Source: a virus. From it: a stretch of 51,506 nucleotides of DNA. The position numbers and the translations under genes are program-made. Below the pieces are notes generated by a model. That model ran no database searches and was not told where the DNA came from. It saw only the letters and a list, made by a program, of their open reading frames with translations. Positions within the stretch are counted from its first letter, which is position 1, and each line of letters begins with the position of its first letter. Shown piece after piece: positions 29,353 to 47,593 of the stretch. The stretch lies in the UHGV virus genome UHGV-0335272; one strand, 5' to 3'.

Positions 29353-29354
29353 TC

Positions 29355-29624
29355 ATGAAATCCATCGCCGATATCAATCAGCAGATGAACAAGGTGCAGT
29401 CTGCCATTATGGCGCTCAACGCCATGAACACTACCGTGCAGAGCGTCATGATTGCGGGTAGTAAGCCGGTTATCCGCATCGCCCGCAACGGGCACTGTGC
29501 CCGCCTGCTGGAGCAGGGCAAAGCGAGTTATACCCATGTTGGTCATGACGGCTCAGGGCGCTTTCGTCAGGGCGTCTTTGAACTGCATGGCTGCCGTATT
29601 ACCTGGTCAGAGTCATTACATTAA
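29355..29624 (+). CDS. Hypothetical early protein
   Basis: 89-aa ORF immediately after B gene. Confidence 0.4.
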   Translation: MKSIADINQQMNKVQSAIMALNAMNTTVQSVMIAGSKPVIRIARNGHCARLLEQGKASYTHVGHDGSGRFRQGVFELHGCRITWSESLH

Positions 29625-29641
29625 CCATAAGGTGAACAGAG

Positions 29642-30253
29642 ATGAGCGAAGTAAATAAAGAAGACTACATGAAAGACCGCAAGGGGCGTCTGGTGCCGGT
29701 TGACCAGGTGTCTGACTATGACCTTGCGATGGATTCTTTCGTTAAAGAACAGGTTGCCGCCGCGAAAGTTAAACGCGATGAACTCAGCGACTTCAAGCGT
29801 CGTGCCTTTGACGAGTGCTATGCCTGGCTTGACCTTGTGGCCGAGAAGTACGGCAGAACGCGTGGCGGTGCCAAAGGCAACGTGACCTTCAGCAGCTTCG
29901 ACGGTGCTCAGCAGATCACCATCCGCGTGCAGGAAACCCTGACCTTCGGGCCAGAGCTGCAGATTGCCAAAGACCTGATAGACGAGTGCGTCACCGAGTG
30001 GTCGGAAGGCGCAAACGCCAACCTGCGAGCCATCATCAGCGATGCTTTTCAAGTGGACAAAGAGGGCCAGCTTAACACCGGACGTATTCTTTCCCTGCGC
30101 CGGGTCAAGATTCAGGACGAGCGCTGGAACCGGGCAATGGAGGCCATATCGGAATCACTGCAGGTGGCAATGTCCAAAACTTATATTAATTTCCGGGAGA
30201 AAGATAAACACGGGAAGCTAATTAATATTCCGTTAGATATCGCTGCCATTTAA
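29642..30253 (+). CDS. Hypothetical early protein (DUF3164-like by recollection)
   Basis: 203-aa ORF with RBS. Confidence 0.45.
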   Translation: MSEVNKEDYMKDRKGRLVPVDQVSDYDLAMDSFVKEQVAAAKVKRDELSDFKRRAFDECYAWLDLVAEKYGRTRGGAKGNVTFSSFDGAQQITIRVQETLTFGPELQIAKDLIDECVTEWSEGANANLRAIISDAFQVDKEGQLNTGRILSLRRVKIQDERWNRAMEAISESLQVAMSKTYINFREKDKHGKLINIPLDIAAI

Positions 30254-30331
30254 TTTTAATTCAATTTCTTTTTATTTCGGCGTCAGCGCCGTGGGCTTCT
30301 GCACGCCGAAAACAGTATTGAGGAATAAATC

Positions 30332-30544
30332 ATGTCCATCAAATGTTCCAACTGTAAGAAAGGTATCACCACCCTGAAGTTCAGCGACGCCAACGTCATT
30401 ACCTCTGGCAAATACCATGTACCAGCCGTCCTCATCACTCTGGTATGCCCGCACTGCAGCCAGCACTACTACACGGAAGTCCCGGCCATGGAGTTCATCC
30501 CCTGTGAAATGAAACAAGGAAAAGAGGCCTCCGATGAAAATTAA
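30332..30544 (+). CDS. Small Cys4 zinc-ribbon protein
   Basis: 70 aa with CSNC ... CPHC. Confidence 0.5.
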   Translation: MSIKCSNCKKGITTLKFSDANVITSGKYHVPAVLITLVCPHCSQHYYTEVPAMEFIPCEMKQGKEASDEN

Positions 30545-30737
30545 TCCATCAGCGGCAACGTGTTTAGAACGAATAAAGACTTTGAATGCTGATAACCAGC
30601 GTTCAGTCAGGGTTAATCTCGGTGTACTTAAAGCGGCTCGTAGTGAAATCCTGGCCCAGGTTGCGATAAACGGAAAAGGCGTCATGACCGATATGGTGCT
30701 CCATGCGTTAGACCACGCGATCAAGGAGGGCCGGTAA
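30534..30737 (+). CDS. Hypothetical small protein
   Basis: 67-aa ORF overlapping previous stop. Confidence 0.4.
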   Translation: MKINPSAATCLERIKTLNADNQRSVRVNLGVLKAARSEILAQVAINGKGVMTDMVLHALDHAIKEGR

Positions 30738-30739
30738 TC

Positions 30740-30910
30740 ATGTGGGTACTTATTTTGTGGATGTTCACATCAGGTACTGAAGGCGAAGGCCTTGTCATAA
30801 CATCTCCGGAATTTACTACTGAGAGTGCCTGCAGGGCAGCATTCCAGGAAGTTAAACGCGTCAATGCCGGTGAAATTTATCTTCGCGGTGTATGCACACC
30901 AAAGGACTAA
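30740..30910 (+). CDS. Hypothetical small protein (56 aa)
   Basis: Manually translated ORF MWVLILWMFTSGTEGEG..., below ORF-track size cutoff; tight spacing to neighbours. Confidence 0.3.
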   Translation: MWVLILWMFTSGTEGEGLVITSPEFTTESACRAAFQEVKRVNAGEIYLRGVCTPKD

Positions 30911-30913
30911 ATC

Positions 30914-31606
30914 ATGCCAATGACTGATAAAGAGAAAGTGCTGGAAAAGTTAAAAAAACTTCTGGCGCTGTCAAAATCTGATAATCCCCATGAAGCCTCA
31001 CTGGCACTGCAGCGTGTTCAGAAACTGATGCAGGCATACGGCATTACCCGTGACGATATCGCTCTCAGTGATATAGACGAAAGCATTAGCAACTACTGGG
31101 CTGCAGGCAGCGTTAATCCACCACGTTACATGCTGGGTCTGCTGGGCATCATCCAGGCTGCCTTTGGGGTGGAATCTATTATTCATTCAGGTCATAAACC
31201 CAGCGTTGGGTTTTACGGTAATAAAGACCGCGTTGAGCTGGCGTCTTATACCTGGGATGTTCTCGCCCGACAGCTTATTACGGCGCGAAAAAAACATATC
31301 GGGCAGCAGAATAAAAGAATCAAAAGCACGACAAAGACCAGCCGTGGCGACAAATTTGCCGAAGGTTGGGTACTGGCCGTGCGTAGTGAAGTGCAATTGT
31401 TTGCTATGACCCGTGAGGAACGGGAGCTGGCTCGACTCTGGCTCGAACAGAAATACCCTGATTCAGGCACAACTACGGGCCGTGAAGCTGGGAAATCACG
31501 TGACGCGGATTTGTCGCGCCATATCGGTTACAGAGAAGGGGAAAACGTTCGCCTGCATCAGCCTGTCAGCGGGCATGAGCAGCGGAAGCTGGGGAGTGGC
31601 TTATGA
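30914..31606 (+). CDS. Hypothetical early protein (DUF2786-like N-terminus by recollection)
   Basis: 230-aa ORF, N-terminal KVLEKLKKLLALSKSDNPHEASLALQRVQKLM. Confidence 0.45.
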   Translation: MPMTDKEKVLEKLKKLLALSKSDNPHEASLALQRVQKLMQAYGITRDDIALSDIDESISNYWAAGSVNPPRYMLGLLGIIQAAFGVESIIHSGHKPSVGFYGNKDRVELASYTWDVLARQLITARKKHIGQQNKRIKSTTKTSRGDKFAEGWVLAVRSEVQLFAMTREERELARLWLEQKYPDSGTTTGREAGKSRDADLSRHIGYREGENVRLHQPVSGHEQRKLGSGL

Positions 31607-31818
31607 TGGCTGAATATATTGTATGCGCCCTGTTCTGGTACTGCCTCGTGGGGTGGTGTAATGCTGAGCTGCACCGCCATTCAGGTTTTTGTTCACGATA
31701 CAGCGGCGCTAAATACTGGATTAGCTGGGCGGTAATGCTCCTTTGCTGGCCTGTAGCCCTTCCTTTATATGTTGACTATGTCAGAGGAAAATCGAAAGGT
31801 GAGGTCGATGATGACTAA
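31603..31818 (+). CDS. Small membrane protein
   Basis: 71 aa with two hydrophobic helices. Confidence 0.4.
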   Translation: MMAEYIVCALFWYCLVGWCNAELHRHSGFCSRYSGAKYWISWAVMLLCWPVALPLYVDYVRGKSKGEVDDD

Positions 31819-32236
31819 ACAGCGCCTCATTCAACTTATTCATATTGCCCGCAGCGACCTCCAGATGGATGAGGATACCTACCGCCAGATGCTGCAGGGG
31901 CTGACCGGCAAAGCCTCGACCAAAGGGATGGATATCACACAGCTAAACAGCGTGCTGGAATCCATGAAAAAGAAAGGTTTTCGCGTTAAGCCTGCCGGGA
32001 AATCCAGGTCCGGTTTACCGCTGGATAGCCATCCTCAGTCAAAGAAAATCCGTGCACTATGGCTTGAAATGGCTGCGGCAGGTGTCGTCCGTGACAGTTC
32101 AGAGCAGGCGCTGGCGCTATGGGTTAAACGGGAAACGGGCATCAGCGCGTTACGCTGGCTCAGCAATGAGCAGGCAAGTAGCGTTATTGAGAAACTGAAA
32201 AAGTGGCAGCGTAGGGCTGCGGGGGTGAAGCAATGA
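31808..32236 (+). CDS. GemA-like regulatory protein
   Basis: ORF trimmed to ATGATG with AGGTGAGG RBS; immediately upstream of mor. Confidence 0.6.
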   Translation: MMTKQRLIQLIHIARSDLQMDEDTYRQMLQGLTGKASTKGMDITQLNSVLESMKKKGFRVKPAGKSRSGLPLDSHPQSKKIRALWLEMAAAGVVRDSSEQALALWVKRETGISALRWLSNEQASSVIEKLKKWQRRAAGVKQ

Positions 32237-32622
32237 GCGACCTGAATCAGTTTCGTAGTAAAGGGCCGGAACTGTTGGTGGAACTGGCACAGCACACCTC
32301 TGAGACCGTCCGCGAGATTATTGATATCGAACCAGCAGTTGCCGACCAGATTGGTCAGGCCGTCGCGAACCGCATGATGCAGGTCTGGGGCGGCCAAAAC
32401 GTCTATTTCCCGATGGGCATGGTCTGGAAGGTCAGCCAGCGCGACCGTGAAATTTTCCTGGAGTTTGACGGGCGCAACCATCACGAACTGGCCCGTAAAT
32501 TTGGTGTTTCGCTACAGTGGGTTTACAGCGTGGTGAAGCGGGTCAGAAAAGAAGAACTGGATCGGATGCAGGGCAAACTGTTTGATGGTGAACCCGATGC
32601 CGATACGGGGAAAAAGGAGTAA
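32233..32622 (+). CDS. Mor/C-family transcriptional activator
   Basis: 129 aa; GGQNVYFP ... DGRNHHELARKFGVSLQWVYSVVKR matches Mor/C family pattern. Confidence 0.8.
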   Translation: MSDLNQFRSKGPELLVELAQHTSETVREIIDIEPAVADQIGQAVANRMMQVWGGQNVYFPMGMVWKVSQRDREIFLEFDGRNHHELARKFGVSLQWVYSVVKRVRKEELDRMQGKLFDGEPDADTGKKE

Positions 32623-32630
32623 TATCTGCA

Positions 32631-32783
<153 letters not shown>

Positions 32784-33713
32784 CGCGGCGGCGACATTGC
32801 GCTGGGCATTGGTGACGAAGTGCTCTCGCCCGTAATGTTCCCCGTGCTGCACCAGCTGCTGGGCCAGACGCTGATCACCACCGACGGGAAGACGCTGCTG
32901 GGGGCAGATGACAAGGCGGGTATCGCGGAGATCATGACGGCGCTGGCGGTGCTGAAGGGCAAAAACATCCCGCACGGGGATATCCGCGTGGCCTTTACGC
33001 CGGATGAAGAGGTCGGCAAGGGCGCGAAGCATTTCGACGTGGAAGCCTTTAACGCGCAGTGGGCCTATACCGTCGACGGCGGCGGCGTCGGTGAACTGGA
33101 GTATGAAAACTTCAATGCCGCGTCCGTCACGATCAAAATTGTCGGCAACAACGTTCATCCTGGCTCGGCGAAAGGCGTTATGGTGAACGCGCTGTCGCTG
33201 GCGTCCAGAATTCATGCAGAAGTCCCGGCGGAAGAGAGCCCTGAACAGACCGAAGGGTATGAAGGTTTCTATCACCTGACCAGCATCAAAGGCACCGTGG
33301 ACAGCGCGCAGATGCACTACATCATCCGCGATTTCGACCGCAAAGCCTTTGAGGCGCGCAAGCGCAAGATGATGGAGATCGCGAAGAAGGTCGGTAAAGG
33401 ATTACACCCAGATTGCTATATTGAGCTGATCATTGAAGACAGCTATTACAACATGCGCGAGAAGGTGATGGCGCATCCGCATATTCTCGATATTGCCCAG
33501 CAGGCGATGCGCGACTGCGATATTGAACCGCAGCTGAAGCCGATTCGCGGCGGCACCGACGGTTCTCAGCTGTCGTTTATGGGGCTGCCGTGCCCGAACC
33601 TGTTTACCGGTGGCTACAACTACCATGGCAAGCATGAGTTTGTGACGCTGGAAGGGATGGAAAAAGCGGTGAAGGTGATAGTACGGATAGCGGAGTTGAC
33701 CGCGAAGCGGTAA
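32784..33713 (+). pseudogene. pepT: Peptidase T, 5'-truncated by prophage insertion (3' ~300 codons present)
   Basis: Reading frame resumes at ...[25 protein letters not shown], matching internal PepT sequence; no upstream PepT N-terminus in window. Confidence 0.85.
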
Positions 33714-33756
33714 GAAAAAGCCCGGTGGCGAAGTGCTTACCGGGCATTAGAGCGAC

Positions 33757-34878
33757 TCAGTCCTCAAAGAACCAGTACCCGCTGTTGACCAGCGCGGCCA
33801 GCATCGCGAGGAAGGAAGGATCTTCCAGCGCATCGCCAAAGGTGTCGGCAGTGAGCACCAGATGGCTGGCAATGGCTTCCAGCGCCGGGCGGTGCGGAGA
33901 GTCCAGCTTCTCGCCGTTGACGAACACCTCTTCACCAATGCGCAGCACGCGCAACCCGCCCAGACGCGTCAGCTTATCGCCCTGCTGAAGCGCATCATAA
34001 ATCTCGTCAGCCTGATACGGCGGCTCCGGCGGCGCAACGTCCAGCTCATGACGAGACTGGCTGATAAACTCACCAAACCACTGTTTGAAGTGCTCCGGCT
34101 CGTTGATCAAATCCAGCATCATGCCGCGCAGCTTATCGAGTTCTTCTGGCAGAATATCCGCCGGATGCTCGCGCGCAGGCACATCAGGGTCGCTGTAACG
34201 ATAGCTGCCCAGCTCGCGCTGCAGAACATAGTCGGCAAATCCGCTGATCATCTCGCGGCCGCTCGGCGCGCGGAACCCCACGGAATAGTTGAGTGAGTTT
34301 TCCAGGGAGTAGCCTTCGTGAGGGAATCCCGGCGGGATGTAGAGAATATCACCCGGCTCCAGCTCTTCGTCGATAATCCCTTCAAACGGGTCAACCTGAA
34401 GCAGGTCAGGATGCGGGCAGTGCTGCTTCATCGGCACTTTTTCGCCCACGCGCCAGCGGCGGCGGCCCGTACCCTGAATGATGAACACGTCGTACTGGTC
34501 AAGATGTGGACCTACGCCGCCGCCCGGCACGGAGAAGGAGATCATCAGATCGTCCATGCGCCAGTCGGGCAGGGCGCGGAACGGGCGCATTAATGCGGCA
34601 GTCGGCTCGTGCCAGTGGTTGACCGCCTGCACCAGCAGCGACCAGTTGTTTTCACCGAGGTGATCGTAGCTTTCGAAAGGTCCGTGGCTAACCTGCCATT
34701 TCCCGTCCTGGTGGCTGACCAGACGGCTGTCGACTTCGTTTTCCATAGCCAGACCTGCCAGCTCGTCAGGCGAGATAGGGTCGACAAAATTGCTGAATCC
34801 GCGTTTCAGAACCACCGGGCGTTTTTGCCAGTAACGTTCAATAAACTCGGGCCAGTTAAGCGTTAAGTGATAATCCAT
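33757..34878 (-). CDS. roxA: Ribosomal protein L16 arginine hydroxylase (cupin/JmjC)
   Basis: 373 aa, near-identical in pattern to E. coli YcfD/RoxA; conserved pepT-ycfD-phoQ-phoP synteny. Confidence 0.85.
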   Translation of the reverse strand: MDYHLTLNWPEFIERYWQKRPVVLKRGFSNFVDPISPDELAGLAMENEVDSRLVSHQDGKWQVSHGPFESYDHLGENNWSLLVQAVNHWHEPTAALMRPFRALPDWRMDDLMISFSVPGGGVGPHLDQYDVFIIQGTGRRRWRVGEKVPMKQHCPHPDLLQVDPFEGIIDEELEPGDILYIPPGFPHEGYSLENSLNYSVGFRAPSGREMISGFADYVLQRELGSYRYSDPDVPAREHPADILPEELDKLRGMMLDLINEPEHFKQWFGEFISQSRHELDVAPPEPPYQADEIYDALQQGDKLTRLGGLRVLRIGEEVFVNGEKLDSPHRPALEAIASHLVLTADTFGDALEDPSFLAMLAALVNSGYWFFED

Positions 34879-34970
34879 AATTTTTTTATTCCGCAGGCTC
34901 TTACTGACTCGGATTATAACGGAAGCTCAGTCCCCCGGCTGCGAGATCCTCGCATTTTTCACATAACGGG

Positions 34971-36434
34971 TTAACTATCGTTCAATGTGGGCTGCTGGCG
35001 ACCAAAAATAACCTCCATTCTGGCGCCGCCCAGCAGGCTTTCACTGGTTTCTATTTTCCCGTCGTACTGGTCGACAATCTCACGGGCGACGGCCAATCCT
35101 ACGCCCTGGCCAGGACGTAGCGTATCGGCGCGCTGACCGCGATCGAACACCACGTCACGCTTATTGCGCGGGATGCCCGGACCATCATCCTCAACGATAA
35201 TATGCAGTTCGGTTTCCGTCTGACGCGCAGACACTTCCACGAACTCCAGGCAGTATTTGCAGGCGTTATCCAGCAGGTTACCCATCACTTCCATGAAGTC
35301 ATTTTTTTCACCCACAAAGCTTATCTCTGGCGAGATATCGAGGCTGATGTTCACCCCTTTACGCTGATACACCTTGTTGAGGGCGGACGTGAGGTTATCC
35401 AGAAGCGGGGCTACCGGGTGCAGCTCGCGGCTCAGAAGCGCGCTGCCGGAACGCATGCTGGCGCGGTGCAGGTAATAGCCAATTTGCTGGGAAATACGGC
35501 TGATCTGCTCCAGCATCACCGGCTCGGCATCATCGACGCTCAGCTTCGAACTGCGCATTGAACGCAGGGTACTTTGCATGACGGCCAGCGGAGTTTTCAG
35601 GCTGTGGGTCAGGTCGGTAAGGGTGGTACGGTATTTATCGTAGCGTTCGCGTTCACTTTTAAGCAGGCGGTTGAGGTTACGCACCAGGCTGGTGAGCTCA
35701 CGGGTGGTTTCCGGGTTCAGCTTCTCGCGATGATGTTCTTCCAGCTCACGAACCTCTTTCGCCAGTGATTCAATGGGGCGCAAGCTCCACCACGCCGCCA
35801 CCCACAGCAGCGGGATCACCAGCAGGAGATTCGCAGCCAGAACGTAGATGAACCAGCTCCAGACCATATAAGAACGCTTCAGCTCGACCGGAATGGTGTC
35901 GATCACCACGATGGTCAGCTGCGGCATGTTCAGCGTCGCTGGATAGAGGTTAATCGCGACGGAGTGCGTCATCTCCGTCTCGGCGTTGTCGGCGCGGATC
36001 TCGTTCAGCTTTTGCTGCAGGGAGCGATCTTCATGGATCAGCGAGCTGGTGGTGTTGAGATCGGCTTCAATTTCGTGAAATCCGTTGGTTTTGAGCCATT
36101 CCGGACGAATGCTTTTGACCAGCCAGGGAATATCACGCTGCGCCCACAGTAATTTCCCCTTTTCGTTATAAATCAGGGCCAGCGTTGGACTCTGCTGGTT
36201 GAGGTTTTCCGGCATTTCGACGGTGATTTGGTTGTTTTCCCACTTCGCCAGGGTATAAAACAGATTGCTTTCGCCACGCAGCAGCCGAAAGGTGGTTTTA
36301 TCAAAGCTGACGCTGTAGCCCACCAGGGCGACCATGCCGTAGGAGAGCGACAGCACCAGCACGACGGCAGCCGTGGCCAGTAAGAAACGAACCCGCAGCG
36401 AGAGGGGCAGTATGTGGCGTAAAATCCCTCTCAT
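34971..36434 (-). CDS. phoQ: Sensor histidine kinase PhoQ
   Basis: 487 aa, strongly resembles E. coli PhoQ throughout. Confidence 0.95.
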
Positions 36435-37106
36435 TTAGCGTAATTCGAACAGGTAGCCCTGGCCACGGACGGTGGTAATCACATCCTGCGGATACTGCGC
36501 CTGAATTTTCTTACGCAAACGCCCCATCAGCACGTCAATGGTATGGCTCTCGCGCAGTTCAGCATCAGGGTAAAGCTGGAGCATTAAGGAATCTTTGCTC
36601 ACCACTTTGCCATTGTTACGGATCAGCGTTTCCATGATGGTGTATTCGAAGGCGGTGAGCTTAATCACTTCATCATTGATCGCTAATTCCCGGCGGGAGA
36701 GATCGACCTGGAATGGCGGGATGGAAATAACCTGTGAAGCCAGCCCGCTGTTGCGGCGTAACAGCGCCTGCATGCGCGCCGCCACCTCTTCAATATGAAA
36801 CGGCTTGGTGACGTAATCGTCTGCACCCGCGCTGAGCACTTCAACCTTATCCTGCCAGCCTTCACGGGCGGTCAGAACCAGAACCGGCAGGGAGACATCG
36901 TGGCTGCGCCAGCGGCGAATTAGCGACAGACCGTCTTCGTCAGGCAACCCTAAATCGACAATGGCGATATCCGGCAGGTGTTCATTGAGATAATAATCGG
37001 CTTCTTTTGCATCTTCAGCATCGTCCACCTGATGTCCCATCTCCTGAAGCTGAACCTTCAGGTGATGGCGTAGTAATGCGTTATCCTCAACAACCAGTAC
37101 GCGCAT
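36435..37106 (-). CDS. phoP: Response regulator PhoP
   Basis: [19 protein letters not shown]... matches E. coli PhoP; start taken at second ATG. Confidence 0.95.
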
Positions 37107-37179
37107 CATCTCTTCTCCCTAAAAAATTGGTATGAATAGTTTAACGCTGATTATGGAGTTTGGAACCAGCGCTATGAAA

Positions 37180-38469
37180 TTAAATGACTTTTTTCATGCT
37201 CCCTATGCCTTGGGGGCGTCCTGGGGGCAAAGCTGTCGGCATCTGATTGTTCAGCATGTTGACCTGATCCTGGTTCATATCGCCAATCCACTTCGAATAA
37301 ACCTCATACACCATACGCGCATCCTCATGGCCCATCTGGCTGGCGATAAAGGACGGGTTCGCGCCGGCCATAAGCGTCCAGCAGGCGTAAGTATGCCGGG
37401 ACTGATAAGGGTTTCTCTCACGAATACCTGAAAGTTTAGTTCCCTGTCGCCAGCCATACGAAATCGAATTTTTAGAAAAATAGCTCTCATTCACTGAAGA
37501 TTTCTTTTCCGGCGAAAAAACGAAACGCAGATTTTGTTGTTCGGTTTTGCCGATTTCGCGATGATGAAAAATAATCTGCTGGCGCGGGTTGTTGCCGGTG
37601 ATTTCGTACTGCTCCAGCAGCGCATCATGCGCGGGCTTGAGCAACGTGATCGTTCTGATTCCCGCATCTGTTTTCGGCGGCACAAATACCCGTTTGTTTG
37701 TCAGACTCCTGGACACGTGTATCTCACCTTTTTTCAAATCAATGTCATCCCACGCCAGGGCGCAAATTTCGCCGGGCCTCATTCCCGTATGCACGGCAAC
37801 GATGATGATCAAAGCCAGTTTGCGGGGAAGGGCTGCAATTAGCGCCTGGTACTCATGAAGTAGAAGCGGATCGGGGTCTGCCTTAGATAGCTTGAGCCTG
37901 GATACGCCCTCATAAGGAGCGTGTAATATAAACTGACTTCGATTAGCAAGCTTCAGCATTTCTGATAAAACAGCCATCTGTTTATTGACCGTTGAGGGCG
38001 CGCGCCCCTTTTTAACCAGGTTAGGCATAGAAGGGTTTAACACGCAGCCCGTCAGCAGCTCTTTGCGATAATGCAGTATGTCGGCGTGTTGAATATCAGC
38101 CAGGGGGGTATTTTCTCCCACTACACGCTTCAGGGTGTTAACTGCAGATGTGAGTGAATGCAGAGTAGCTCCTGACACCTCCAGTGCTTTTGTCTCGATG
38201 AAAAAATCGCTCAGCTCACTGAACGTCGCGATCCGCTTTGTTGATGAGAATTTTTTAAGGGCCTTTGACTCAGGGAAGCGCGCCGCATAGTCGAACTGGC
38301 CGAACTGGATCTCACTTACGATGACGGCGCGAAGGTTTCCCGCCTTCTTGATGTTGCTGCTGTTAACCACCCAGCCACGGAGAACTTCGCGGCAGCGAAT
38401 GCCGCGATAGGTAAACGTTATCCTGATTTTTCCGTTATGAAGTTCAACGCCAGTTGGAAAGTTCATCAT
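37180..38469 (-). CDS. Tyrosine integrase (phage integrase family)
   Basis: 429 aa; C-terminal catalytic region with RHTYACW ... [11 protein letters not shown] pattern; first gene at prophage boundary. Confidence 0.85.
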
Positions 38470-38693
38470 GCTTCCTGAATAAATCTATTAATCAGCGGAA
38501 AGTTGTACCAGACCAAAGCGCGCTTGCTTTCCCCACCGGGTACCGCGGGTACTCGCTTAAAATGAACTCCTTCAATCCAGCATCCGAGGCGATAAGCTTT
38601 TATTTGCCTGTCATCCAGCCCCGTTTTCTCAGTTAGCTTTCCCGCCACCATCCACTCTTCATCGAAAATGATTTGCGCCATGCTTAACTCCAT
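38466..38693 (-). CDS. Excisionase-like protein
   Basis: 75-aa ORF overlapping int start by 4 nt. Confidence 0.5.
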
Positions 38694-38742: not shown

Positions 38743-38982
38743 TCACCTGCCGAGTCCAGGGAGGCACTGGAGGTGCCTGGCACCGGTCATTGCCGTTGCC
38801 ACATAACTACGGGGGCGGTTAACAACCTCGACCGTAATTTTTCTCCCTTGGATCTTGACGGTGTAAAACGTCTGTTTGTCGTTGCGGCCATGCTCGCCGT
38901 ATTTGTCGAGATGGCATTTTAGAGCGGCGGCACATGCAGGCCCGCCGATGCTGTCTCCCTTGCTTCGGTTAATCAGACGCAC
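38743..38982 (-). CDS. Hypothetical small protein
   Basis: 79-aa ORF in early-left operon. Confidence 0.4.
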   Translation of the reverse strand: MRLINRSKGDSIGGPACAAALKCHLDKYGEHGRNDKQTFYTVKIQGRKITVEVVNRPRSYVATAMTGARHLQCLPGLGR

Positions 38983-40873
38983 AGGAGCCTTCCTGATGGT
39001 TTATAACGCCGCGGGCAAGTCCGGCGGCCATAGCCGGTAATTCCTCATACTGGTTGCAAAAGGCCGGGTTGGAGCATAAGCCCTGCAGGGCAGCAATGGT
39101 CAGCTGTTGCAGGTAGGTAACAGGCGAAAGCGGCGCGTTTGTCACAGGTGCTGGATCCGGCTCGGTTTTATGCTTTGCAGTAACGGCTGGTGGATCGAGC
39201 ACGACAGATTTTGGTGGTGCCGGGCGGCGGTATTCAACGATCGCATCAAGGGCGATTTTCTGACGCACGCTGATATCGTCAGACCAGCTATCCAGCATGG
39301 TGGTTGCCACGTCGTGGATCTCCTCGTCGGAGAACTCAGGAGACAGGCAAAATTCTGTGGTGGTGATATCGGCCATTAGCAGTGGAATAACATCAGAAAC
39401 GAGCTGGCCGGTGCCTGCCACCACATCTTCTGCTTCTTCTTTCCCCATGATGTTGGTGCGTCCAGAAATAAGGTCATTAAGCGCATGCAAAATCGCAAAG
39501 TCGCGATTATTTGGTGCAGGTGGTACTTCCTGTTTTTCGACCTCATTTGAGGGGGAATTATTAATCAGTGCATCAACAGAGAAGACTCCGCCGCCCAGGT
39601 TCTCCACCCGTGGTTGGTCAATCGCTTGCTCTTCTGGTGCCGGGCTCTGAGTGAATGCCTCGTTGAGTTCATTGTTGAGTTGCGCAGCTTCGCCTGGGCA
39701 AACTGCTGGTGGCAGAGCTTCGCCCGGTACAGTCGATTCGGTTTCATCATTTTCTTTTTTCTCAACATTAGTGCGAGGTTTAGGGCGGCAGGCTATATCA
39801 ACCGTTTTCTGGTCAGGGTTCGCATGGTCACGTTCAACCAGCTCGCGATTAATGTATTCACGCAAGGCAACAGGATCCATCCAAATGTTCTCCGGGGCGG
39901 ATTTAATCAGGGCGATAATGGCCGCACGGGAATAATCCAGAATGCCTGGGGTGCTGCGCAGTTTTTTCCACCACGCTGTAAAACGGGTGTCCTGTTCTGC
40001 TTCGGCCATGGCTTTCGCTGGAATCATGTATTTATTCGGGATCCAGTAAATGTCGATCTCGTCGTACATACTCAGAATGGCAACAGCCACTTCGATACGC
40101 AGCGTAGAGAGGTTATGAACCAGATCCGGGCTGCGGTCTGTCTTGTTACCACCGCCCAGTGTGGAGCCGGTGTCTGTACGGTTTTCTTCTGAGTTAGTGC
40201 TGTCAGCCAGAGGTCGCTTATCAACCGGGGTATCGATCCATTTAGCGATCTGCTTTTTGATGTCCGGCCACTGTGCAGAGTCTTTTGTATTTTCTCGTAT
40301 CCATGCGAGCAGCTGCTCCTGCCGTTCCGGAGCCAGCGCCAGCGCGCGGGTCTCTTTCGCCAGTGCTTCTGCAAGCTCGCGGGCAAAGCTGGGTTCATCA
40401 TCATTCTTCAGATCGACGATCTGGCCGTACTGCGCTGTAGTGATTCCAGGGACCGGGCCGAACAGTGCCAGGCAAGCTGCACGGGATGCCACGTCGAGCT
40501 GCGCGACAGTTTTAATTTCTTCCAGTGCCTTGTTGTCGTCCCATTCCGTCTTTTCTTCAGATTCTGGCTGTGGTGCTGCAGCTGGTTCACCTGCATTCAC
40601 ATTCCAGATAGCAACGGTATCGAAAAATTCAGATGAGAAGACATCAAGCTCAGGGCACGGTAAACCTTCACGGTGTTCCCAGATCTTCACTTTGAAGAAA
40701 TCATCAATATGTTCCGGGTGTTCAGCTGCCAGCTTGCCGAAAATAACGGCTTCAGCGATGGCTTTTGTTGCCGCATTAACTGCTGTGGCAAGCGGTTTTA
40801 AATCGGGGTGTTTTTTCAATGCTTTATCTTTTGGGAAATAAGCACCACCAAAAACTTTTAATTCAACAGACAT
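38969..40873 (-). CDS. Large acidic protein of unknown function (early-left operon)
   Basis: 634 aa, no P-loop or recognisable catalytic motif by eye; Pro/Glu-rich linker segments. Confidence 0.6.
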   Translation of the reverse strand: MSVELKVFGGAYFPKDKALKKHPDLKPLATAVNAATKAIAEAVIFGKLAAEHPEHIDDFFKVKIWEHREGLPCPELDVFSSEFFDTVAIWNVNAGEPAAAPQPESEEKTEWDDNKALEEIKTVAQLDVASRAACLALFGPVPGITTAQYGQIVDLKNDDEPSFARELAEALAKETRALALAPERQEQLLAWIRENTKDSAQWPDIKKQIAKWIDTPVDKRPLADSTNSEENRTDTGSTLGGGNKTDRSPDLVHNLSTLRIEVAVAILSMYDEIDIYWIPNKYMIPAKAMAEAEQDTRFTAWWKKLRSTPGILDYSRAAIIALIKSAPENIWMDPVALREYINRELVERDHANPDQKTVDIACRPKPRTNVEKKENDETESTVPGEALPPAVCPGEAAQLNNELNEAFTQSPAPEEQAIDQPRVENLGGGVFSVDALINNSPSNEVEKQEVPPAPNNRDFAILHALNDLISGRTNIMGKEEAEDVVAGTGQLVSDVIPLLMADITTTEFCLSPEFSDEEIHDVATTMLDSWSDDISVRQKIALDAIVEYRRPAPPKSVVLDPPAVTAKHKTEPDPAPVTNAPLSPVTYLQQLTIAALQGLCSNPAFCNQYEELPAMAAGLARGVINHQEGSCASD

Positions 40874-40904
40874 AATTACCTCTATAATTTTAGGGGGATG
40901 ATAT

Positions 40905-41138
40905 TTAGCGATATGGTTTTCGAATAACGCACCTTAAATTTTTTAACGCGTTACGTCTTTCTCTTTTTTCATTGCATTGCTCACATAAATAAATCGTGCG
41001 CTTAAAGGGATATATATCTGTTTTCCTTTCATGCATTTCCGATTTTTTATATTCGTGGCAGCAAACAGCGCAATGACAAATGATGTCATCCATATCAGTT
41101 AAGTTGTTGGCGTTTGTGATCGTAATAAGACATGCCAC
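40905..41138 (-). CDS. Small Cys-rich zinc-finger-like protein
   Basis: CHCAVCC ... CEQC cysteine pattern. Confidence 0.4.
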   Translation of the reverse strand: MACLITITNANNLTDMDDIICHCAVCCHEYKKSEMHERKTDIYPFKRTIYLCEQCNEKRERRNALKNLRCVIRKPYR

Positions 41139-41367
41139 AAGCGTTCTGCGCTTCTGCGAAGTTCACAGACAGCAAGCTAATGTGCTCAACAGCACAAATC
41201 GGGCAATGAAATTCACCGAGCACGTAGCCACCGTCAAGCACAACGGTTACGGGGCCAGAAGATGGCAGATGAACAACGCCAGAAATGGCACCGTTAATAT
41301 TAAAAGTTGCAAGGTCTTTATTGACGATAGCCAGGTTCATTTCTACGGTTGTAATAGTTGCTTTCAT
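41095..41367 (-). CDS. Hypothetical small protein
   Basis: 90-aa ORF; overlaps the next ORF by about 44 nt, so one of the two starts is probably wrong. Confidence 0.35.
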   Translation of the reverse strand: MKATITTVEMNLAIVNKDLATFNINGAISGVVHLPSSGPVTVVLDGGYVLGEFHCPICAVEHISLLSVNFAEAQNACGMSYYDHKRQQLN

Positions 41368-41434
41368 TTTACAGTCCTTAATTTAAGGTGTGAAAATCCC
41401 AGCCAGTTAAGGCATCGGTTTTAGGTTGGTCGAA

Positions 41435-41620
41435 TTAAATAACTTTTAGATTATTGCGCCATTCCTGATAAGGCTGGCGATGCACAACAAAATTTCTGTA
41501 TTTCCGTAATACTTTCCAGGCGGCATGGCATCCCGCAACATCGCGAAGAAATACTGAAGTTACGAGTTTTCCTTGTGCCCAGGCAATTTGTTGTTCCGGT
41601 GTTAATTGTGTCTTATCCAT
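41435..41620 (-). CDS. Hypothetical small protein
   Basis: ORF trimmed to MDKTQLTPEQQIAWAQGK... with upstream GGAG. Confidence 0.4.
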   Translation of the reverse strand: MDKTQLTPEQQIAWAQGKLVTSVFLRDVAGCHAAWKVLRKYRNFVVHRQPYQEWRNNLKVI

Positions 41621-42271
41621 ATATGAACACTCCACTATAAAACCTGATTTAAAAAGGGCGGTGTATACGTGGACCACGGGAAACGCATATACCACCAAGA
41701 ACTAAACACAGCCTCATGTTGCGATTACCCACAACTGGAAGCGCACTCAATCAATTTTGACTTAACGACAAAGCTCAAATTGGTGAGGCGAGTGCGCTCT
41801 CAATTGTGGGCGATTCATCTGCCCTGGTCCGGCGGCGCCACCTCGCCAGAGCAGATGTAAAGGGCAGTTACGCTGCCATGCGGCTTATTGGTCTGTGCAG
41901 GTATTTCAAGTCCTGCATCGTGGGGTTTGCTCTCCGCCCCAGGTTCTCCCCGCTACGCTTTAGCGCGCAACCTGAGAAAACCGCCTTCAAGCCTTTGGCT
42001 TACGCCACATTCATGAAACTGCCTGGACGAACTCGGAAAAGCTCAGTGCTTCTTCACCTTCCGCCAGACTGTTGAAATATTCTTCGTATGCTTTTTCCAT
42101 CTCGAACCCCTGTTGCTGCTTTGCTCGGCTTATCACCCTTATCGCCGGGTAGGCGGAACGTTTACTGATTACTGCGTGTTTTGTTGGTCTAAGTTTATAA
42201 AAAAATAAACCAATATGTAAAGTTAATGATAAACAAAAAGGCGTGAAAAATTGGATGTGGTTGAATTTGGA

Positions 42272-42297
42272 GAAAAAAAAGACCGCAACAGGCGGTC
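42272..42297 (-). terminator. Intrinsic terminator downstream of repressor gene
   Basis: Minus-strand GACCGC-CTGTT-GCGGTC hairpin followed by TTTTTTTT, 10 nt after the repressor stop. Confidence 0.6.
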
Positions 42298-42307
42298 TTT
42301 AGGGGAG

Positions 42308-42703
42308 TTAGTCTATTTCGAGGTCTTTGAGCATCTGAAGGATTTCTTGTTTGCTCTTGCCTTTAAGCCTTGCCTTGAGCTCATTGTCTATGGAGTTAAC
42401 TTGGGCCCTGAGGTTTACCATGTGCTGCTCTTTTTCCCATTCAGCAAGGCTGTCGAAAAGGTCTAGAAGTTCTTCATGGCGCGCGTCAAATGGACGAGGG
42501 GATCTTATCTCTTCACCCATAGGTTCTTCATCAAGATAACCAGGAGCCATGCCGTAATCTCGTTCAATACGGCGCGCAGCTCTCTCGCCGAACGACGCTT
42601 TGCCGTTGATCAGCTGTGAAAGGTAGCTCTTCTCTTTCTCCGGCAGGGTTCTGCTGGAAAACCATGCCGCTAGGCGCTTACGCCTGATTTCTTTTGTGTC
42701 CAT
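42308..42703 (-). CDS. Prophage repressor (HTH, CI-like, no peptidase domain)
   Basis: 131 aa; HTH-like segment EKSYLSQLINGKASFGERAARRIERDYGM; divergent from cro-like gene. Confidence 0.65.
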   Translation of the reverse strand: MDTKEIRRKRLAAWFSSRTLPEKEKSYLSQLINGKASFGERAARRIERDYGMAPGYLDEEPMGEEIRSPRPFDARHEELLDLFDSLAEWEKEQHMVNLRAQVNSIDNELKARLKGKSKQEILQMLKDLEID

Positions 42704-42743
42704 GCAGTCATTTTGATTAGTAATTTCTAAACAAGCAAAAACT

Positions 42744-42772
42744 TGACATTAATGTTTAGTGGTTTATAAACT
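42744..42772 (+). promoter_or_regulatory. Candidate early rightward promoter with overlapping palindromes
   Basis: TTGACA then 15 to 17 bp then TATAAA/TAAACT; GTTTATAAAC palindrome over the -10; CTAAAC ... GTTTAG inverted repeat. Confidence 0.4.
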
Positions 42773-42797
42773 TGCAACTCAACACACAGGAGCAATT

Positions 42798-43055
42798 ATG
42801 CAACTCAATGACTTTTTGAAAGCCGGTGGACCAAAGATCCGCAAGGCGCTGGAGCAACACCTTGGGATATCGAAATCTTACCTCTCCCAACTTGCAACGG
42901 GGCGAGCAGCTATTTCGCCGAGTCGATGCATCGTTATCGAAACCTTTACCGATGGAAAGGTTTCTCGTTCTGACATGCGGCCAAGCGATTGGGCTGAAAT
43001 TTGGCCTGATTACAAGCCAAAAAATAACACAACAGCTCAGGAGGATACTGACTGA
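42798..43055 (+). CDS. Cro-like HTH regulator
   Basis: ORF trimmed to MQLNDFLKAGGPKIRKALEQHLGISKSYLSQLATGR... with GGAG RBS. Confidence 0.6.
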   Translation: MQLNDFLKAGGPKIRKALEQHLGISKSYLSQLATGRAAISPSRCIVIETFTDGKVSRSDMRPSDWAEIWPDYKPKNNTTAQEDTD

Positions 43056-43507
43056 TGGAAATCAAAAAACTGGCATGTGAGCTGGAGTCCTGGGCGCAGG
43101 AAAAGGGCTGGAAGACAGTCACGCAGCTGATAACCCCGCATCACTTTGGCGATCTGCTTCAGCCATTGGATAACGTGACGGACCCTGACGAGTACGCGCG
43201 GCGCTTGCACAACAACAAGCAGATTATTCAGCGTGCATTCCGCAACGATACACCTAACTACCTGAAACAGGCTGAAGCCCTGAGCTATGCCATCCGCACC
43301 GCCATTGATAACGAGCTAGAGCAGAAAGACTGCATGCTCTACCGGGCGGCAAGGGTTAACAAAGAGTGTATCGAAGCCACCAATGCAGTCTTCACTGGCA
43401 AACCGCAACCGGTAATCCGCCGCGAGACTCTGGAAGCAATCGACGCGCTGGCGCAGCTGGTCGGCGTCAAAGTGAAGCTGGTTTCGACTTGTTCAAACGT
43501 AGCCTAG
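43055..43507 (+). CDS. Hypothetical regulatory protein (CII/YdaT-like position)
   Basis: 150-aa ORF directly after cro-like gene. Confidence 0.35.
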   Translation: MEIKKLACELESWAQEKGWKTVTQLITPHHFGDLLQPLDNVTDPDEYARRLHNNKQIIQRAFRNDTPNYLKQAEALSYAIRTAIDNELEQKDCMLYRAARVNKECIEATNAVFTGKPQPVIRRETLEAIDALAQLVGVKVKLVSTCSNVA

Positions 43508-43529
43508 TTCAGTTGTATCGAGGTGTTCT

Positions 43530-44447
43530 ATGAGCATGGAACTGATGGTTCAGGCGATGAAGGTCAAGGTAGGAAACCCGCTTCGTAAGCTGGTTCTGCT
43601 TAAGCTGGCCGATAACGCAAGTGACCAGGGCGAATGCTGGCCGAGTTATCAGCATATCGCTGATCAGTGTGAGATCAGCCGTCGTTCCGTCATGAATCAT
43701 GTTGCCGCGCTTTGCGAGTCTGGTCTGATGCGAAAAGAGACCAGATCGGGGCCGAAAGGCAATGGCAGCAATTTCTACCGACTAACCCTGAGCGGTGCAA
43801 ATACCAGTGCAAGGGTAGTGCAGGAGATTCACCAGAATGGTGAAGCAAATTCACCAGGGGCTGGTGCAGGAAATTCACCAGATGGTGCAGCACGTTCACC
43901 AGGGGATAGTGAAGGAGATTCACCCAGAATCAGTCACTCTTCTGAACCAGTCAAAGAACCAGAAAATACTTCTTGTCCGGAGGCTTCGCCGTCGGACGGA
44001 AAATTGACAAAAACCGAATTTTTAAAGCGCCACCCAGAAGCGGTGGTCTACAGCCCTGCAAAACGCCAGTGGGGCAGTCAGGAAGATTTGACCTGTGCGC
44101 AATGGATTTGGAAGCGCGTGCTGAAACTCTACGAGGAGGCCGCAACCTTTGACGGCGAGATCGTTCGTCCGAGAGAGCCGAACTGGACGGCCTGGGCGAA
44201 CGAAGTTCGTCTGATGCGCACCCTTGATGGCCGTAGCCACAAGCAAATTTGTGAAATGTTCAAGCGCGTCCAGAGCGATACGTTCTGGGTTCGCCAGGTC
44301 AAATGCCCGGCCAAACTGCGCGAAAAATGGGATGACCTGATTATCCGCCTGTCGGCGCCGGGCACAGGGCATTACCAGGCCGGTGGACGGGATATCAATC
44401 AGATCTCCCGTCCCGATAACACCGTTCCGCCAGGATTCAGGGGGTAA
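43530..44447 (+). CDS. Replication initiation protein (O-like, N-terminal HTH)
   Basis: N-terminal LRKLVLLKLADNASDQGECWPSYQHIADQCEISRRSVMNHVAALCESGLM; upstream of DnaC-like gene. Confidence 0.6.
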   Translation: MSMELMVQAMKVKVGNPLRKLVLLKLADNASDQGECWPSYQHIADQCEISRRSVMNHVAALCESGLMRKETRSGPKGNGSNFYRLTLSGANTSARVVQEIHQNGEANSPGAGAGNSPDGAARSPGDSEGDSPRISHSSEPVKEPENTSCPEASPSDGKLTKTEFLKRHPEAVVYSPAKRQWGSQEDLTCAQWIWKRVLKLYEEAATFDGEIVRPREPNWTAWANEVRLMRTLDGRSHKQICEMFKRVQSDTFWVRQVKCPAKLREKWDDLIIRLSAPGTGHYQAGGRDINQISRPDNTVPPGFRG

Positions 44448-44449
44448 AC

Positions 44450-45190
44450 ATGCAAAACGCAGGTTCCATTCTCGATCGCCTTCGCCGTGTCATTCCGCCG
44501 GGCGTAGAACCCAAATTTAAGAGCGCTGCAGAGCTGATGGCCTGGCAGCGGGAAGAAGGGCAAAAGCGCGCAGCTGAGATTGACAAGATCAACCAGCAGG
44601 CGCGGGCAGAGAAAATTTTCGGGCGATCCGGGATCCAGAACCTGCACCGCAGCTGCAGCTTCGCAAATTACAATGTGGAGGGCGACGGCCAGCGGCATGC
44701 GCTGAGTATGGCAAAGAGCTACGCGCAAAATTTTGGTACCGGCTTTGCCAGCTTCGTTTTCACCGGAAAGCCTGGTACCGGGAAAAACCACCTCTCAGCG
44801 GCGATCGGAAATTATCTGCTGAAACAGGGCCGAACGGTTCTGATTGTGACGGTGCCTGATCTGACCCTGCGCGCCCGTGCCTGCTATGACGAAGGTCGTT
44901 CTGAAGCCGCGCTGCTGGATGACCTCTGCAAAGTGGATCTGCTGGTGCTCGACGAAGTCGGCATTCAGCGCGACAGCCGCGGCGAGAAAGTTTTATTGAA
45001 CCAGATTATAGATCGCCGGCTGGCCGCTATGCGCCCGGTTGGCGTACTGACCAACCTGAATTACGACGTGCTTGTAGAGACCCTGGGGGCAAGGGTTATC
45101 GATCGCCTGCGCATGGATAACGGCATTTGGGTGAACTTTGACTGGGAGAGCTATCGCGGAAACGTTAGCCACCTGAGACCTGTTAAGTGA
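44450..45190 (+). CDS. DnaC-like helicase loader (IstB-like ATPase)
   Basis: Walker A GKPGTGKNHL, Walker B LLVLDEVG. Confidence 0.8.
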   Translation: MQNAGSILDRLRRVIPPGVEPKFKSAAELMAWQREEGQKRAAEIDKINQQARAEKIFGRSGIQNLHRSCSFANYNVEGDGQRHALSMAKSYAQNFGTGFASFVFTGKPGTGKNHLSAAIGNYLLKQGRTVLIVTVPDLTLRARACYDEGRSEAALLDDLCKVDLLVLDEVGIQRDSRGEKVLLNQIIDRRLAAMRPVGVLTNLNYDVLVETLGARVIDRLRMDNGIWVNFDWESYRGNVSHLRPVK

Positions 45191-45207
45191 ATTTTGAGGT
45201 GAAAATT

Positions 45208-45882
45208 ATGGAAACCGTATTGGATGCACTGAAAGCCATGAAAAAAGCAACATATCGCGAGGTTGCTGCCCGTCTGGATATCGAGCCCATTGAAGCGCTG
45301 AACATGCTGCGCGAGCAGAAAGAACAAGGGTTATGTGATTTTTACGATGGCGCATGGTCAATCGGTACAGCTAAAGAGCAGGCCAGGCAGCCGATCAAAC
45401 CTCAGGCAGCGGAGCCAGCGAATCAGGCTCCGCGCCTGAAAGGTGATGAACCAGCACCGGTTGATGTTGTGGCCATCCGCCAGTTGCTTGGAAAGAGCGG
45501 CTCTATGACCACCGCTGCGCTGGCTGCAGCTGTAAATCGTAATGCCCGCGGCATGGTCTCTGTAATGCTGTCTTTTGAGCGGCAGGGCGTGGTTATCAAA
45601 AACGGCGAGGGGAAGGGCGTGACATGGTCTCTGCCTGGAGCTGGTGAGGCCGCAGGCGTTACAGCCGAAGCTGCACAGCCAGAAAAAACAACTGCAGAAA
45701 TTATTGAGACCATCCCGGCATTCGCCTCTCGCCCTGATGACCTGATTATTCCGTCATCCCGTTATATCTCCGGTGAAATCCGCCGGACAAAAGCGAAGCT
45801 GTCAAACCTGCAGCGTCTTCAGGGCGCCGTTCGGGAGCTACGCCGCCATAAGCATCTGCTGGAGGGGCTGGGGAATGACTAA
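45208..45882 (+). CDS. Hypothetical protein
   Basis: ORF trimmed to METVLDALKAMKK... Confidence 0.45.
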   Translation: METVLDALKAMKKATYREVAARLDIEPIEALNMLREQKEQGLCDFYDGAWSIGTAKEQARQPIKPQAAEPANQAPRLKGDEPAPVDVVAIRQLLGKSGSMTTAALAAAVNRNARGMVSVMLSFERQGVVIKNGEGKGVTWSLPGAGEAAGVTAEAAQPEKTTAEIIETIPAFASRPDDLIIPSSRYISGEIRRTKAKLSNLQRLQGAVRELRRHKHLLEGLGND

Positions 45883-46105
45883 TTTACCGAAATGCCCTCA
45901 ATGCGGCATGGCCCCTTCACTGAGGGTTCGCAGCCGGGGAATGAACTGGGGTTCAGCAGAGGTCCGCTGTTCGAACGGTTGCCCTGGCATCCGAGCGGGA
46001 TTTTCGTTCCCGCCTGATGGTGAGGCAGCGGCCCGGCAGTTGCTTCAGGAAAAATGGAAAGAGCTTGTGGGAGGAATCAACGATGCCACGACCAAAAACT
46101 CATGA
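45875..46105 (+). CDS. Small zinc-ribbon protein (Lar-like restriction alleviation candidate)
   Basis: MTNLPKCPQCGMAPS...CSNGC cysteine pairs; overlaps neighbours. Confidence 0.35.
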   Translation: MTNLPKCPQCGMAPSLRVRSRGMNWGSAEVRCSNGCPGIRAGFSFPPDGEAAARQLLQEKWKELVGGINDATTKNS

Positions 46106-46349
46106 AGAGCGCACGGTGATGATTAACCGGATTATCGAACTGGTGAAAGAGCAGGGCCGTATCACGACGAAGGACGTCGTCGCGATGTTTAACCTGCACC
46201 GAACCACGGCAGAGAAGTACATCCGGATTGCCGTGCAACGTGGAGAGCTTATCCGTTACGGTCGCTGCGGTATTTTCCGTGACCAACGTGCAATTATCGA
46301 CTTTGACCTTAGCCGCTTTTCACAGCATAGAGTGGGTATGCAACCTTAA
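46083..46349 (+). CDS. Hypothetical HTH-like protein
   Basis: ORF trimmed to MPRPKTHEERTVMINRIIELVKEQGRITTKDV... Confidence 0.4.
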   Translation: MPRPKTHEERTVMINRIIELVKEQGRITTKDVVAMFNLHRTTAEKYIRIAVQRGELIRYGRCGIFRDQRAIIDFDLSRFSQHRVGMQP

Positions 46350-46656
46350 GTAAGACTTTCACCGCAAAAGGGCACATATCATTCTTAATTCAATGAAAGC
46401 GCGAACCCAATGGATGATTATCCAGGTCGATATGAACAGGCAACAACCTCTGGCTGGATAACTCCTGGTAGAGCTAGAATGACGATGCATTTATCACTGC
46501 TGTTTAATACAGATTAAAACAATGATGCTAAAATCTTGGTCTACATCAAAGATCTGTGTAACTGACTGATATTATTGAGTTGGTGTGATTTTGTTGTGGC
46601 TTATGACAAAATTTGATTGATCTTTTTTGTGGTTGTGACTAGAGGTCTTGTCAATT

Positions 46657-46697
46657 GGATTCATCGATCGATGAAAAAAGAATTGATCGATGAATCC
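46657..46697. promoter_or_regulatory. 13-bp perfect inverted repeat with GATC sites overlapping a candidate promoter
   Basis: GGATTCATCGATC - 15 bp - GATCGATGAATCC; TTGATC then 17 bp then TAAACT downstream; TTGTGGNTNTGAC direct repeats upstream. Confidence 0.45.
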
Positions 46698-47589: not shown

Positions 47590-47593
47590 GTTT

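Follow-up and report, generated by a model that had tools for sequence, protein, structure and literature searches.

UHGV-0335272 is a viral genome sequence of 51,506 nt (the whole of which we call the window) in which the integrase gene of a lambdoid prophage stands immediately upstream of phoP, the response regulator gene of the PhoP/PhoQ two-component system. In enteric bacteria this system is the master regulator for Mg2+ homeostasis, lipid A modification and virulence, and the family as a whole has kept its positive autoregulation. A preliminary description of the window, made from its sequence, placed the prophage about 70 bp upstream of phoP and suspected that it had displaced the PhoP box through which phoP is autoregulated. 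We compared this junction (37107..37182) with prophage-free and lysogenic loci. The features at and around it are the following.

32784..37155: 'pepT-roxA-phoQ-phoP segment of the chromosome, collinear with relatives that lack the prophage (blastn)
34971..36434, minus strand: phoQ, intact, sensor kinase of 487 amino acids, collinear with phoQ of contigs L001-L010 (PhoQ_Sensor/HATPase_c)
36435..37109, minus strand: phoP, intact, response regulator of 224 amino acids (translation, starting MMRVLVVED)
37120..37110, minus strand: retained ribosome-binding site AGGGAGAAGAG
37110..37141, minus strand: retained host phoP leader, the same or nearly the same in prophage-free relatives (alignment)
37143..37138 (TAAACT), minus strand: retained -10-like GTTAAACT
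37142..37155, minus strand: 14-bp att core CATAATCAGCGTTA, common to attB, attL, attR and attP
37156..37179, minus strand: phage-derived, integrase-proximal 24 nt at the place where the PhoP box would be, with no similarity to attB
37178..37173, minus strand: -35-like TTCATA, 17 nt upstream of CATAAT
37211..37228, minus strand: two GCCCCCA(A/G)G repeats in the 3' end of int (copies at 37228 and 37217), candidate arm-type Int sites
37180..38469, minus strand: Rac IntR-like tyrosine integrase of 429 amino acids, full-length open reading frame (Pfam)

The integrase gene ends with a TAA stop codon at 37182..37180, is co-oriented with phoP and is separated from it by a gap of 70 nt, which reads int-TAA-TTTCATAGCGCTGGTTCCAAACTC-CATAATCAGCGTTA-AACTATTCATACCAATTTTTTAGGGAGAAGAG-ATG. 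The preliminary description had located this stop codon near the phoP start correctly. Its figure of about 70 bp holds for the distance to the integrase stop; the true junction is the att core (37142..37155), 33-46 nt upstream of the phoP ATG and within the -10/start-site region. The -10-like TTAAAC and the ribosome-binding site that it had listed as retained are both present in the leader.

As prophage-free loci we used nine contigs that encode exactly this PhoP protein (L001-L008 and L010); L009 (OW849320.1) is a lysogen with the same integrase beside phoP. The gene order in the prophage-free contigs is icd-rluE-nudJ-mnmA-hflD-purB-phoP-phoQ-roxA-pepT. In the alignment, the purB TAA is followed by a GC-rich hairpin with a T-run, which was called as a terminator by terminator detection, and then by CCCC, GGTTTActcaaTGTTTA, TCCCCACAACAA, CATAATCAGCGTTAAACTATTC and further sequence up to phoP. 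A perfect PhoP box, GGTTTACTCAATGTTTA, was found in 9/9 of these loci (GGTTTACTAAATGTTTA, with ctaaa, in L001), and the window has phage sequence at this place. The window agrees with the prophage-free loci only from CATAATCAGCG onward; upstream of the core, both it and L009 depart from them. A blastn comparison of 32784..37155 with the prophage-free contig L003 gave 97.6% identity over 4372 bp, with the match stopping exactly at 37155. Past the core, the host continues with AACTA and the phage with GACTG. No match to purB was obtained anywhere in the window (tblastn). The earlier impressions that the sequence upstream of phoP is phage-derived, that purB is missing from this side and that the PhoP box has been displaced were therefore borne out by the end of homology at 37155, by the negative tblastn search and by the box that the relatives hold where the window has phage DNA. 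We conclude from these alignments that site-specific integration produced the junction at 37107..37182, which is the one on the integrase side (attL in lambda nomenclature), and we regard this anatomy as practically certain.

The 24-nt spacer between core and integrase was invariant in length and conserved in sequence over 21 distinct phage variants. A longer phage-derived core (T for A in the leader, AATTTTTT versus AATTATTT) was considered and rejected, because the leader follows host lineage among lysogens. An imperfect inverted repeat, TAGCGCTGGTT / AATCAGCGTTA (37142..37174, minus strand), takes in both the phage spacer and the core, and members of the phage family have conserved it. Folding of 37100..37215 gave an unremarkable energy (z = -0.63); perhaps the repeat binds a protein instead of forming an RNA structure.

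The Salmonella phoP promoter belongs to architecture I, in which one direct PhoP box precedes the -10 by 12 nt, and a 58-bp fragment of it (-52 to +5) suffices for Mg2+- and PhoP-dependent transcription (PMC3335776). In E. coli, a constitutive promoter, P2, lies upstream of P1 (PMC3750022). The prophage-free Enterobacter loci contain GGTTTActcaaTGTTTA, exactly 12 nt and CATAAT, and E. coli has the same geometry (TGGTTTAtttaaTGTTTA-12-CATAAT). Because this spacing between box and hexamer is that of architecture I, CATAAT (37155..37150), the first six bases of the core, is predicted to be the -10 of the PhoP-activated phoP promoter; the other eight would reach approximately to the start site. 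This -10 and the leader downstream of it are kept in the window. The architecture I box is absent upstream of phoP in the window and present in attB and attR. At the aligned box positions, the phage sequence matches 1/6 bases per half-site. A search for (T/G)GTTTA-N5-(T/G)GTTTA with up to two mismatches found none on the phoP strand in 37110-37900, in agreement with the earlier failure to see a clean GTTTA direct repeat.

We also scanned 6 kb upstream of the core on both strands in 50 lysogen loci for a replacement box, with the prophage-free loci as control, in which the perfect box was recovered at -29. The sole positionally conserved box-like motif in the lysogens was TGTTTATTGACCGTTGA, found 840 nt upstream of the core in 49/50 loci. 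We rejected it as a replacement box: it is reversed, departs from the box at two positions and is part of the int coding sequence (peptide TVNKQMAV), where coding constraint explains its conservation. No other positionally conserved box-like site was found within these 6 kb in the 50 loci. The scan indicates that there is no replacement PhoP box within usable range. Over the whole window, 19 PhoP-box-like matches (up to two mismatches) were counted against 6.3 expected from shuffles, none of them near phoP; this excess is probably an effect of the AT-rich composition of the phage DNA.

Searching IMG/VR with the integrase yielded 80 loci, whose integrases were 83-100% identical to that of the window. 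The core lies exactly 24 nt past the int stop, followed by the phoP leader and phoP, in all of the approximately 50 loci that were long enough; their leaders vary, which indicates different host lineages. The opposite junction was sought by the PhoP box, and then by the core with the first phage bases of the other side (CATAATCAGCGTTAGACTG). This attR was found in 7 IMG/VR and 21 metagenome contigs, with a few contigs belonging to both sets; three extra metagenome matches to the pattern were discarded as chance, being about the number expected for a 19-mer. The attR layout is purB, terminator, PhoP box, 12 nt, CATAATCAGCGTTA, GACTG and a conserved arm. This integrase-distal arm of the attR and attP loci carries three to four copies (TGCCCCCAA) of the repeat motif seen in the 3' end of int, and it is plausible that the GCCCCCA repeats are arm-type Int sites. 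In these lysogens the PhoP box has been relocated to attR rather than lost, and it faces into the prophage.

Both junctions occur together on the 13,268-bp contig L098 (= L029 = L110), which reads purB, attR, a 12.6-kb element, int, attL and phoP. The SRAP (SOS-response-associated peptidase) gene of this element is frameshifted and its umuC is fragmented, and the element looks like a decaying remnant that still parts the PhoP box from phoP. The contig L115 (ERZ1106981 NODE_1975) contains an attP, in which an integrase 94% identical to that of the window is followed by 24 nt, the core (at ~3548, oriented) and the distal arm; it would come from a phage genome that is excised or free, or else from a tandem prophage. 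Indirect evidence for integration and excision consists of this attP contig from a metagenome and of empty attB sites in the same species. By the sequences of attB, attL and attR, exact excision would rebuild the native promoter. The far end of the prophage lineage of the window was not recovered in the IMG/VR pattern scans, because trimming of the viral contigs from isolates cuts them off ahead of the distal arm, and the phage genome collection contained no genome with this integrase or attP. On one contig (L134, IMGVR_UViG_3300001368_000037, 4720..4745), the distal arm with SRAP borders on unrelated sequence, and identity begins only at AGCGTTAGACTG. This junction may reflect integration at a secondary site or an exchange of modules, and it hints that strand exchange may take place in the AGCGTTA part of the core.

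We surveyed what the displaced promoter faces in 21 distinct attR/attP loci with enough sequence past the core. In about half of them the first real gene is a co-oriented SRAP gene (PF02586, 3.4e-51; Pfam), which begins 333-339 nt past the core. The others have different co-oriented open reading frames (several loci) or an opposite-strand open reading frame (four loci) as the first gene, and UmuC/UmuD-like genes lie deeper inside the prophage from attR. One locus (L093) is without a convincing terminator between core and SRAP, and its SRAP gene has a promoter-like site of its own. PhoP-driven transcription from attR into the prophage is plausible from this arrangement, though some variants would have no gene within its reach.

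To describe the distribution of the junction, we searched about 100,000 species-representative genomes with a 49-nt attL-specific pattern. Nine were positive: Citrobacter werkmanii NBRC 105721, C. youngae ATCC 29220, C. gillenii, C. braakii ATCC 51113, C. koseri NCTC10786, C. portucalensis A60, Lelliottia nimipressuralis, Enterobacter genomosp. O and E. mori LMG 25706. The phoP site is a recurrent integration target in at least three genera (Enterobacter, Citrobacter and Lelliottia) and not a peculiarity of one strain. In C. youngae ATCC 29220 (L102) only an int fragment (residues 127-269) is left and phoP appears frameshifted near residue 200; int also appears frameshifted in C. portucalensis A60 (L108) and C. 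koseri NCTC10786 (L106). These decayed int genes beside phoP represent either fossilized junctions or sequencing or assembly errors. The int-phoP junction was found in 0/5,426 E. coli genomes. The E. coli equivalent of the core (E. coli N3, L099, 370..410) is CATAATCGCGTTA (CATAATC-GCGTTA), with a 1-nt deletion, which may explain this absence. A literature search, whose scope left out most subscription papers, found no description of a prophage at purB/phoP; a mention in a genome paper is possible.

What could transcribe phoPQ in the lysogen? A promoter scan found TTCATA-17-CATAAT at 37178..37150, which matches 9/12 positions and was the only minus-strand match in 36900-38800. The -35-like hexamer, supplied by the phage, is TTCAT[GA] in 17/21 distinct phage variants; its conservation could equally reflect binding of Int or IHF. 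No terminator-like structure was found between int and phoP. The purB terminator, by which phoP is normally insulated, has moved to attR with none in its place between int and phoP, and read-through from int is therefore possible. phoP is a complete open reading frame in the 50 lysogen loci, with products of 224 (46 loci), 223 (two), 225 (one) and 206 amino acids (one, the frameshifted C. youngae gene); it is intact in 49/50, which encode 21 distinct proteins, and phoQ is intact wherever it is visible (in the window and several genomes). Because both genes stay intact in lysogens, phoPQ seems to be still under selection and is presumably expressed.

Taken together, these observations lead us to propose the following course of events. 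The IntR-like integrase would recombine at the 14-bp core, which would be the -10/start-site region of the PhoP-activated promoter P1, and integration would cut this promoter in two. The attL side keeps only the predicted -10 hexamer, the leader and the ribosome-binding site, and in place of the box it has the end of int and 24 nt of phage sequence; the equivalent of the constitutive P2 would, by analogy with E. coli, also be left on the purB side. The attR side, as seen in other lysogens, has the purB terminator, the box, the 12-nt spacer, the -10 and approximately +1 next to purB, a near-complete minimal P1 aimed at the distal arm. phoPQ of the lysogen would then lack positive autoregulation and be transcribed independently of PhoP, from the hybrid promoter, by read-through from int or by both. 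After induction, read-through of the leftward early operon could add to phoPQ transcription, and excision would restore the native phoPQ promoter. We put the probability of the overall reading, namely that the junction is the attL of a Rac/lambda-like phage at the -10/start site of P1 and that phoPQ is parted from its PhoP box, at about 0.8. Loss of positive autoregulation of phoPQ in the lysogen appears probable, with appreciable room for doubt.

Several points weigh against this interpretation. The loss of autoregulation is read from sequence, the 9/12 match of the hybrid promoter occurs at chance frequency for the region, and a promoter that is still functional could include the retained TAAACT. 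Common lysogens with an intact phoP may mean either that autoregulation is dispensable or that it has been replaced undetected. Moreover, the attR of the genome represented here lies beyond the window, and the new location of the box is taken from other lysogens.

Autoregulation might also be kept if a PhoP box in the left end of the prophage, upstream of or within the int-xis operon, drove PhoP-dependent read-through into phoPQ. Yersinia provides a precedent, with a box upstream of a gene inserted 5' of phoP (PMC2650801), and in the window int, xis and two more genes are co-oriented with phoP without a terminator before it. The box-like TGTTTATTGACCGTTGA, conserved in 49/50 loci, would be the candidate, but its orientation, its mismatches and its position in a coding sequence speak against it, none of the known PhoP promoter architectures has a box so far from a -10 (PMC3335776), and the 6 kb upstream offer no other conserved site; we consider this explanation unlikely. 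An equally improbable alternative is that phoPQ is silenced or weakly expressed in lysogens, which would make the prophage a PhoPQ knock-down. The removal of the PhoP box, and by analogy with E. coli of P2, would favour silencing, as would the weakness of the phage -35-like element (3-4/6 match). However, the 49/50 intact phoP genes with their 21 distinct products and the intact phoQ argue for selection and hence expression, and the junctions persist in lineages with a decayed int. The preliminary description had further asked whether the box might lie within the att core, or whether prophage-free relatives might share the upstream sequence, so that nothing had been displaced. Such an ancestral upstream sequence or a box rebuilt by the core is almost certainly not what we see: prophage-free genomes with an identical PhoP have purB, the terminator and the box, the core starts 12 nt downstream of the box, and attR junctions keep the box on the purB side.

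A farther-reaching version of the proposal is that this phage family is specialized on the -10/+1 region of phoPQ P1 and carries out a reciprocal exchange of promoters. The host PhoP promoter would then drive distal cargo (SRAP, umuDC-like and other genes) under low-Mg2+, antimicrobial-peptide or intracellular conditions, phoPQ would come under PhoP-independent phage transcription that read-through from int couples to prophage induction, and integration and excision would toggle the PhoPQ feedback. We hold this to be speculative and rather doubtful. In some Citrobacter, the decayed int genes argue against condition-dependent switching.

The remainder of the element on the right of the window is made up as follows.

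38466..38693, minus strand: putative excisionase (DUF1233; Pfam PF06806, 4.5e-19)
38743..51506: lambdoid early region, running past the right end of the window (gene order and Pfam)
42308..42703, minus strand: repressor-like regulator, on the strand opposite to the CII-like activator
50707..51309: Q-like antiterminator

The integrase has the domains Arm-DNA-bind_2 (PF12167, 4.7e-24) and Phage_integrase (PF00589, 3e-19) in Pfam, and among the integrases of sequenced phages it is nearest to the one of Escherichia phage PHB10 (50%) and to Rac IntR (49%); integrases of Stx-converting phages come next (43%). The early region encodes an exonuclease-like protein of 634 amino acids, a CII-like activator, O-like and DnaC-like replication proteins, Ren-like and UmuD-like proteins, a C5 methylase and RusA. 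With int-xis, repressor/cII, O/P-like genes, a nin-like region and Q in lambda order, the element is a lambdoid prophage (Rac/lambda-like) by its gene content; int, xis, the repressor-like, CII-like, O/P-like, RusA and Q-like genes uphold the earlier assignment. The late region falls beyond the window. The nin-like region carries a UmuD-like gene (47718..48050) and a C5 cytosine methylase gene (48874..50361) as cargo. The cargo of the prophage leans to DNA-damage tolerance, and the far end of its relatives has SRAP and umuDC-like genes.

The chromosomal segment phoP-phoQ-roxA-'pepT forms an islet of 4.37 kb with one prophage on either side. Its PhoP, with the domains Response_reg and Trans_reg_C, is identical to the protein of the prophage-free genomes, and 32784..37155 is 99.99% identical to the metagenome contig L011 (blastn). 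The window is 92% identical to Lelliottia nimipressuralis, 92% to Enterobacter genomosp. O and 88% to E. mori. The phoP gene is ~80% identical to that of E. coli and was the sole region to match E. coli in the comparison. Because of this, E. coli is ruled out as the host, which by sequence is Enterobacter-like. Features of this side of the window are listed below.

33757..34878, minus strand: roxA/ycfD, downstream of phoQ
16068-17564: Portal_Mu
23082-23852: Dam-like methylase
26415-28184: rve transposase (Mu-like)
28195-29352: MuB-like AAA_22 gene

The second prophage (1..32783) is unrelated to the first and of the Mu-like transposable type; DUF3164, tail sheath, tape measure and baseplate J genes were also detected in it. 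Unlike in Mu, its early (plus-strand) and late (minus-strand) genes are divergent. The prophage ends with TCTAATCA at 32783 inside pepT, of which only PepT residues 99-408 are left (32784..33713); pepT is intact in L011. An open reading frame of 334 amino acids (26901..27905) was rejected as an IS110 transposase gene, having no Pfam match and lying antisense to the Mu-like transposase gene.

The integrase resembles Rac IntR (attB in ttcA) and e14 IntE (attB in icd) in being an arm-binding and catalytic integrase encoded next to an excisionase, and differs from Rac IntR in being only ~49% identical to it. With lambda-type systems the present one shares the short core that is identical in attB, attP, attL and attR and the lambdoid gene order, and it has repeats in both arms that are candidate arm-type sites. 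In contrast to Rac/e14-type sites, the core described here would lie in a promoter (-10/+1 of phoPQ P1) and not in a coding region or tRNA gene, and the phage brings no duplicate of the displaced part, so that a regulatory element is separated instead of reconstituted. Prophages with regulatory insertion sites include Listeria phi10403S in comK, Stx phages in mlrA/yehV and SpyCIM1 in mutL. These are likewise temperate elements in a host regulator gene or region, whose precise excision restores the locus; they interrupt a coding sequence or an operon, whereas the cut proposed here falls between an activator site and the -10/start site and would amount to a reciprocal exchange of promoters.

By analogy, the closest functional counterpart is the engineered PhoP-box deletion of Salmonella (Perez et al. 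2009, strain EG14338), which keeps the coding region and the leader and loses the PhoP site 12 nt upstream of the -10; Salmonella with this deletion does not grow at 10 uM Mg2+, autoregulation being needed there for growth when Mg2+ is low (PMC2650801). The arrangement described here differs in being natural, recurrent in wild strains and potentially reversible by excision, and in having phage sequence upstream and possible read-through. In Yersinia pestis, the gene y1795 has been inserted 5' of phoP; the PhoP box is found upstream of this gene and still drives a co-transcript with phoPQ (PMC2650801). The likeness consists in inserted DNA between the ancestral box position and phoP; in the present case, a prophage stands between them (related prophage contigs measure ~40 kb or more, and the remnant in L098 12.6 kb).

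According to modelling and experimental work in E. coli, the main effect of the feedback is a higher maximal output when the stimulus is strong (PMC7808668). The lysogens look like natural, recurrent and potentially reversible box-deletion mutants, and they include the type strains E. mori LMG 25706, C. werkmanii NBRC 105721 and C. braakii ATCC 51113. Autoregulation is reportedly also required for a transcription surge and for virulence, as Shin et al. are said to have found in 2006. Colistin heteroresistance of the Enterobacter cloacae complex has been linked to PhoPQ. If autoregulation is lost as we suggest, lysogeny would alter the dynamics and amplitude of the PhoP regulon as well as PhoPQ-dependent colistin heteroresistance in this complex, and control of phage cargo would pass to a virulence regulator of the host. 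Should the more tentative exchange of promoters also prove true, virulence-related output and polymyxin (colistin) heteroresistance would change in Enterobacter and Citrobacter.

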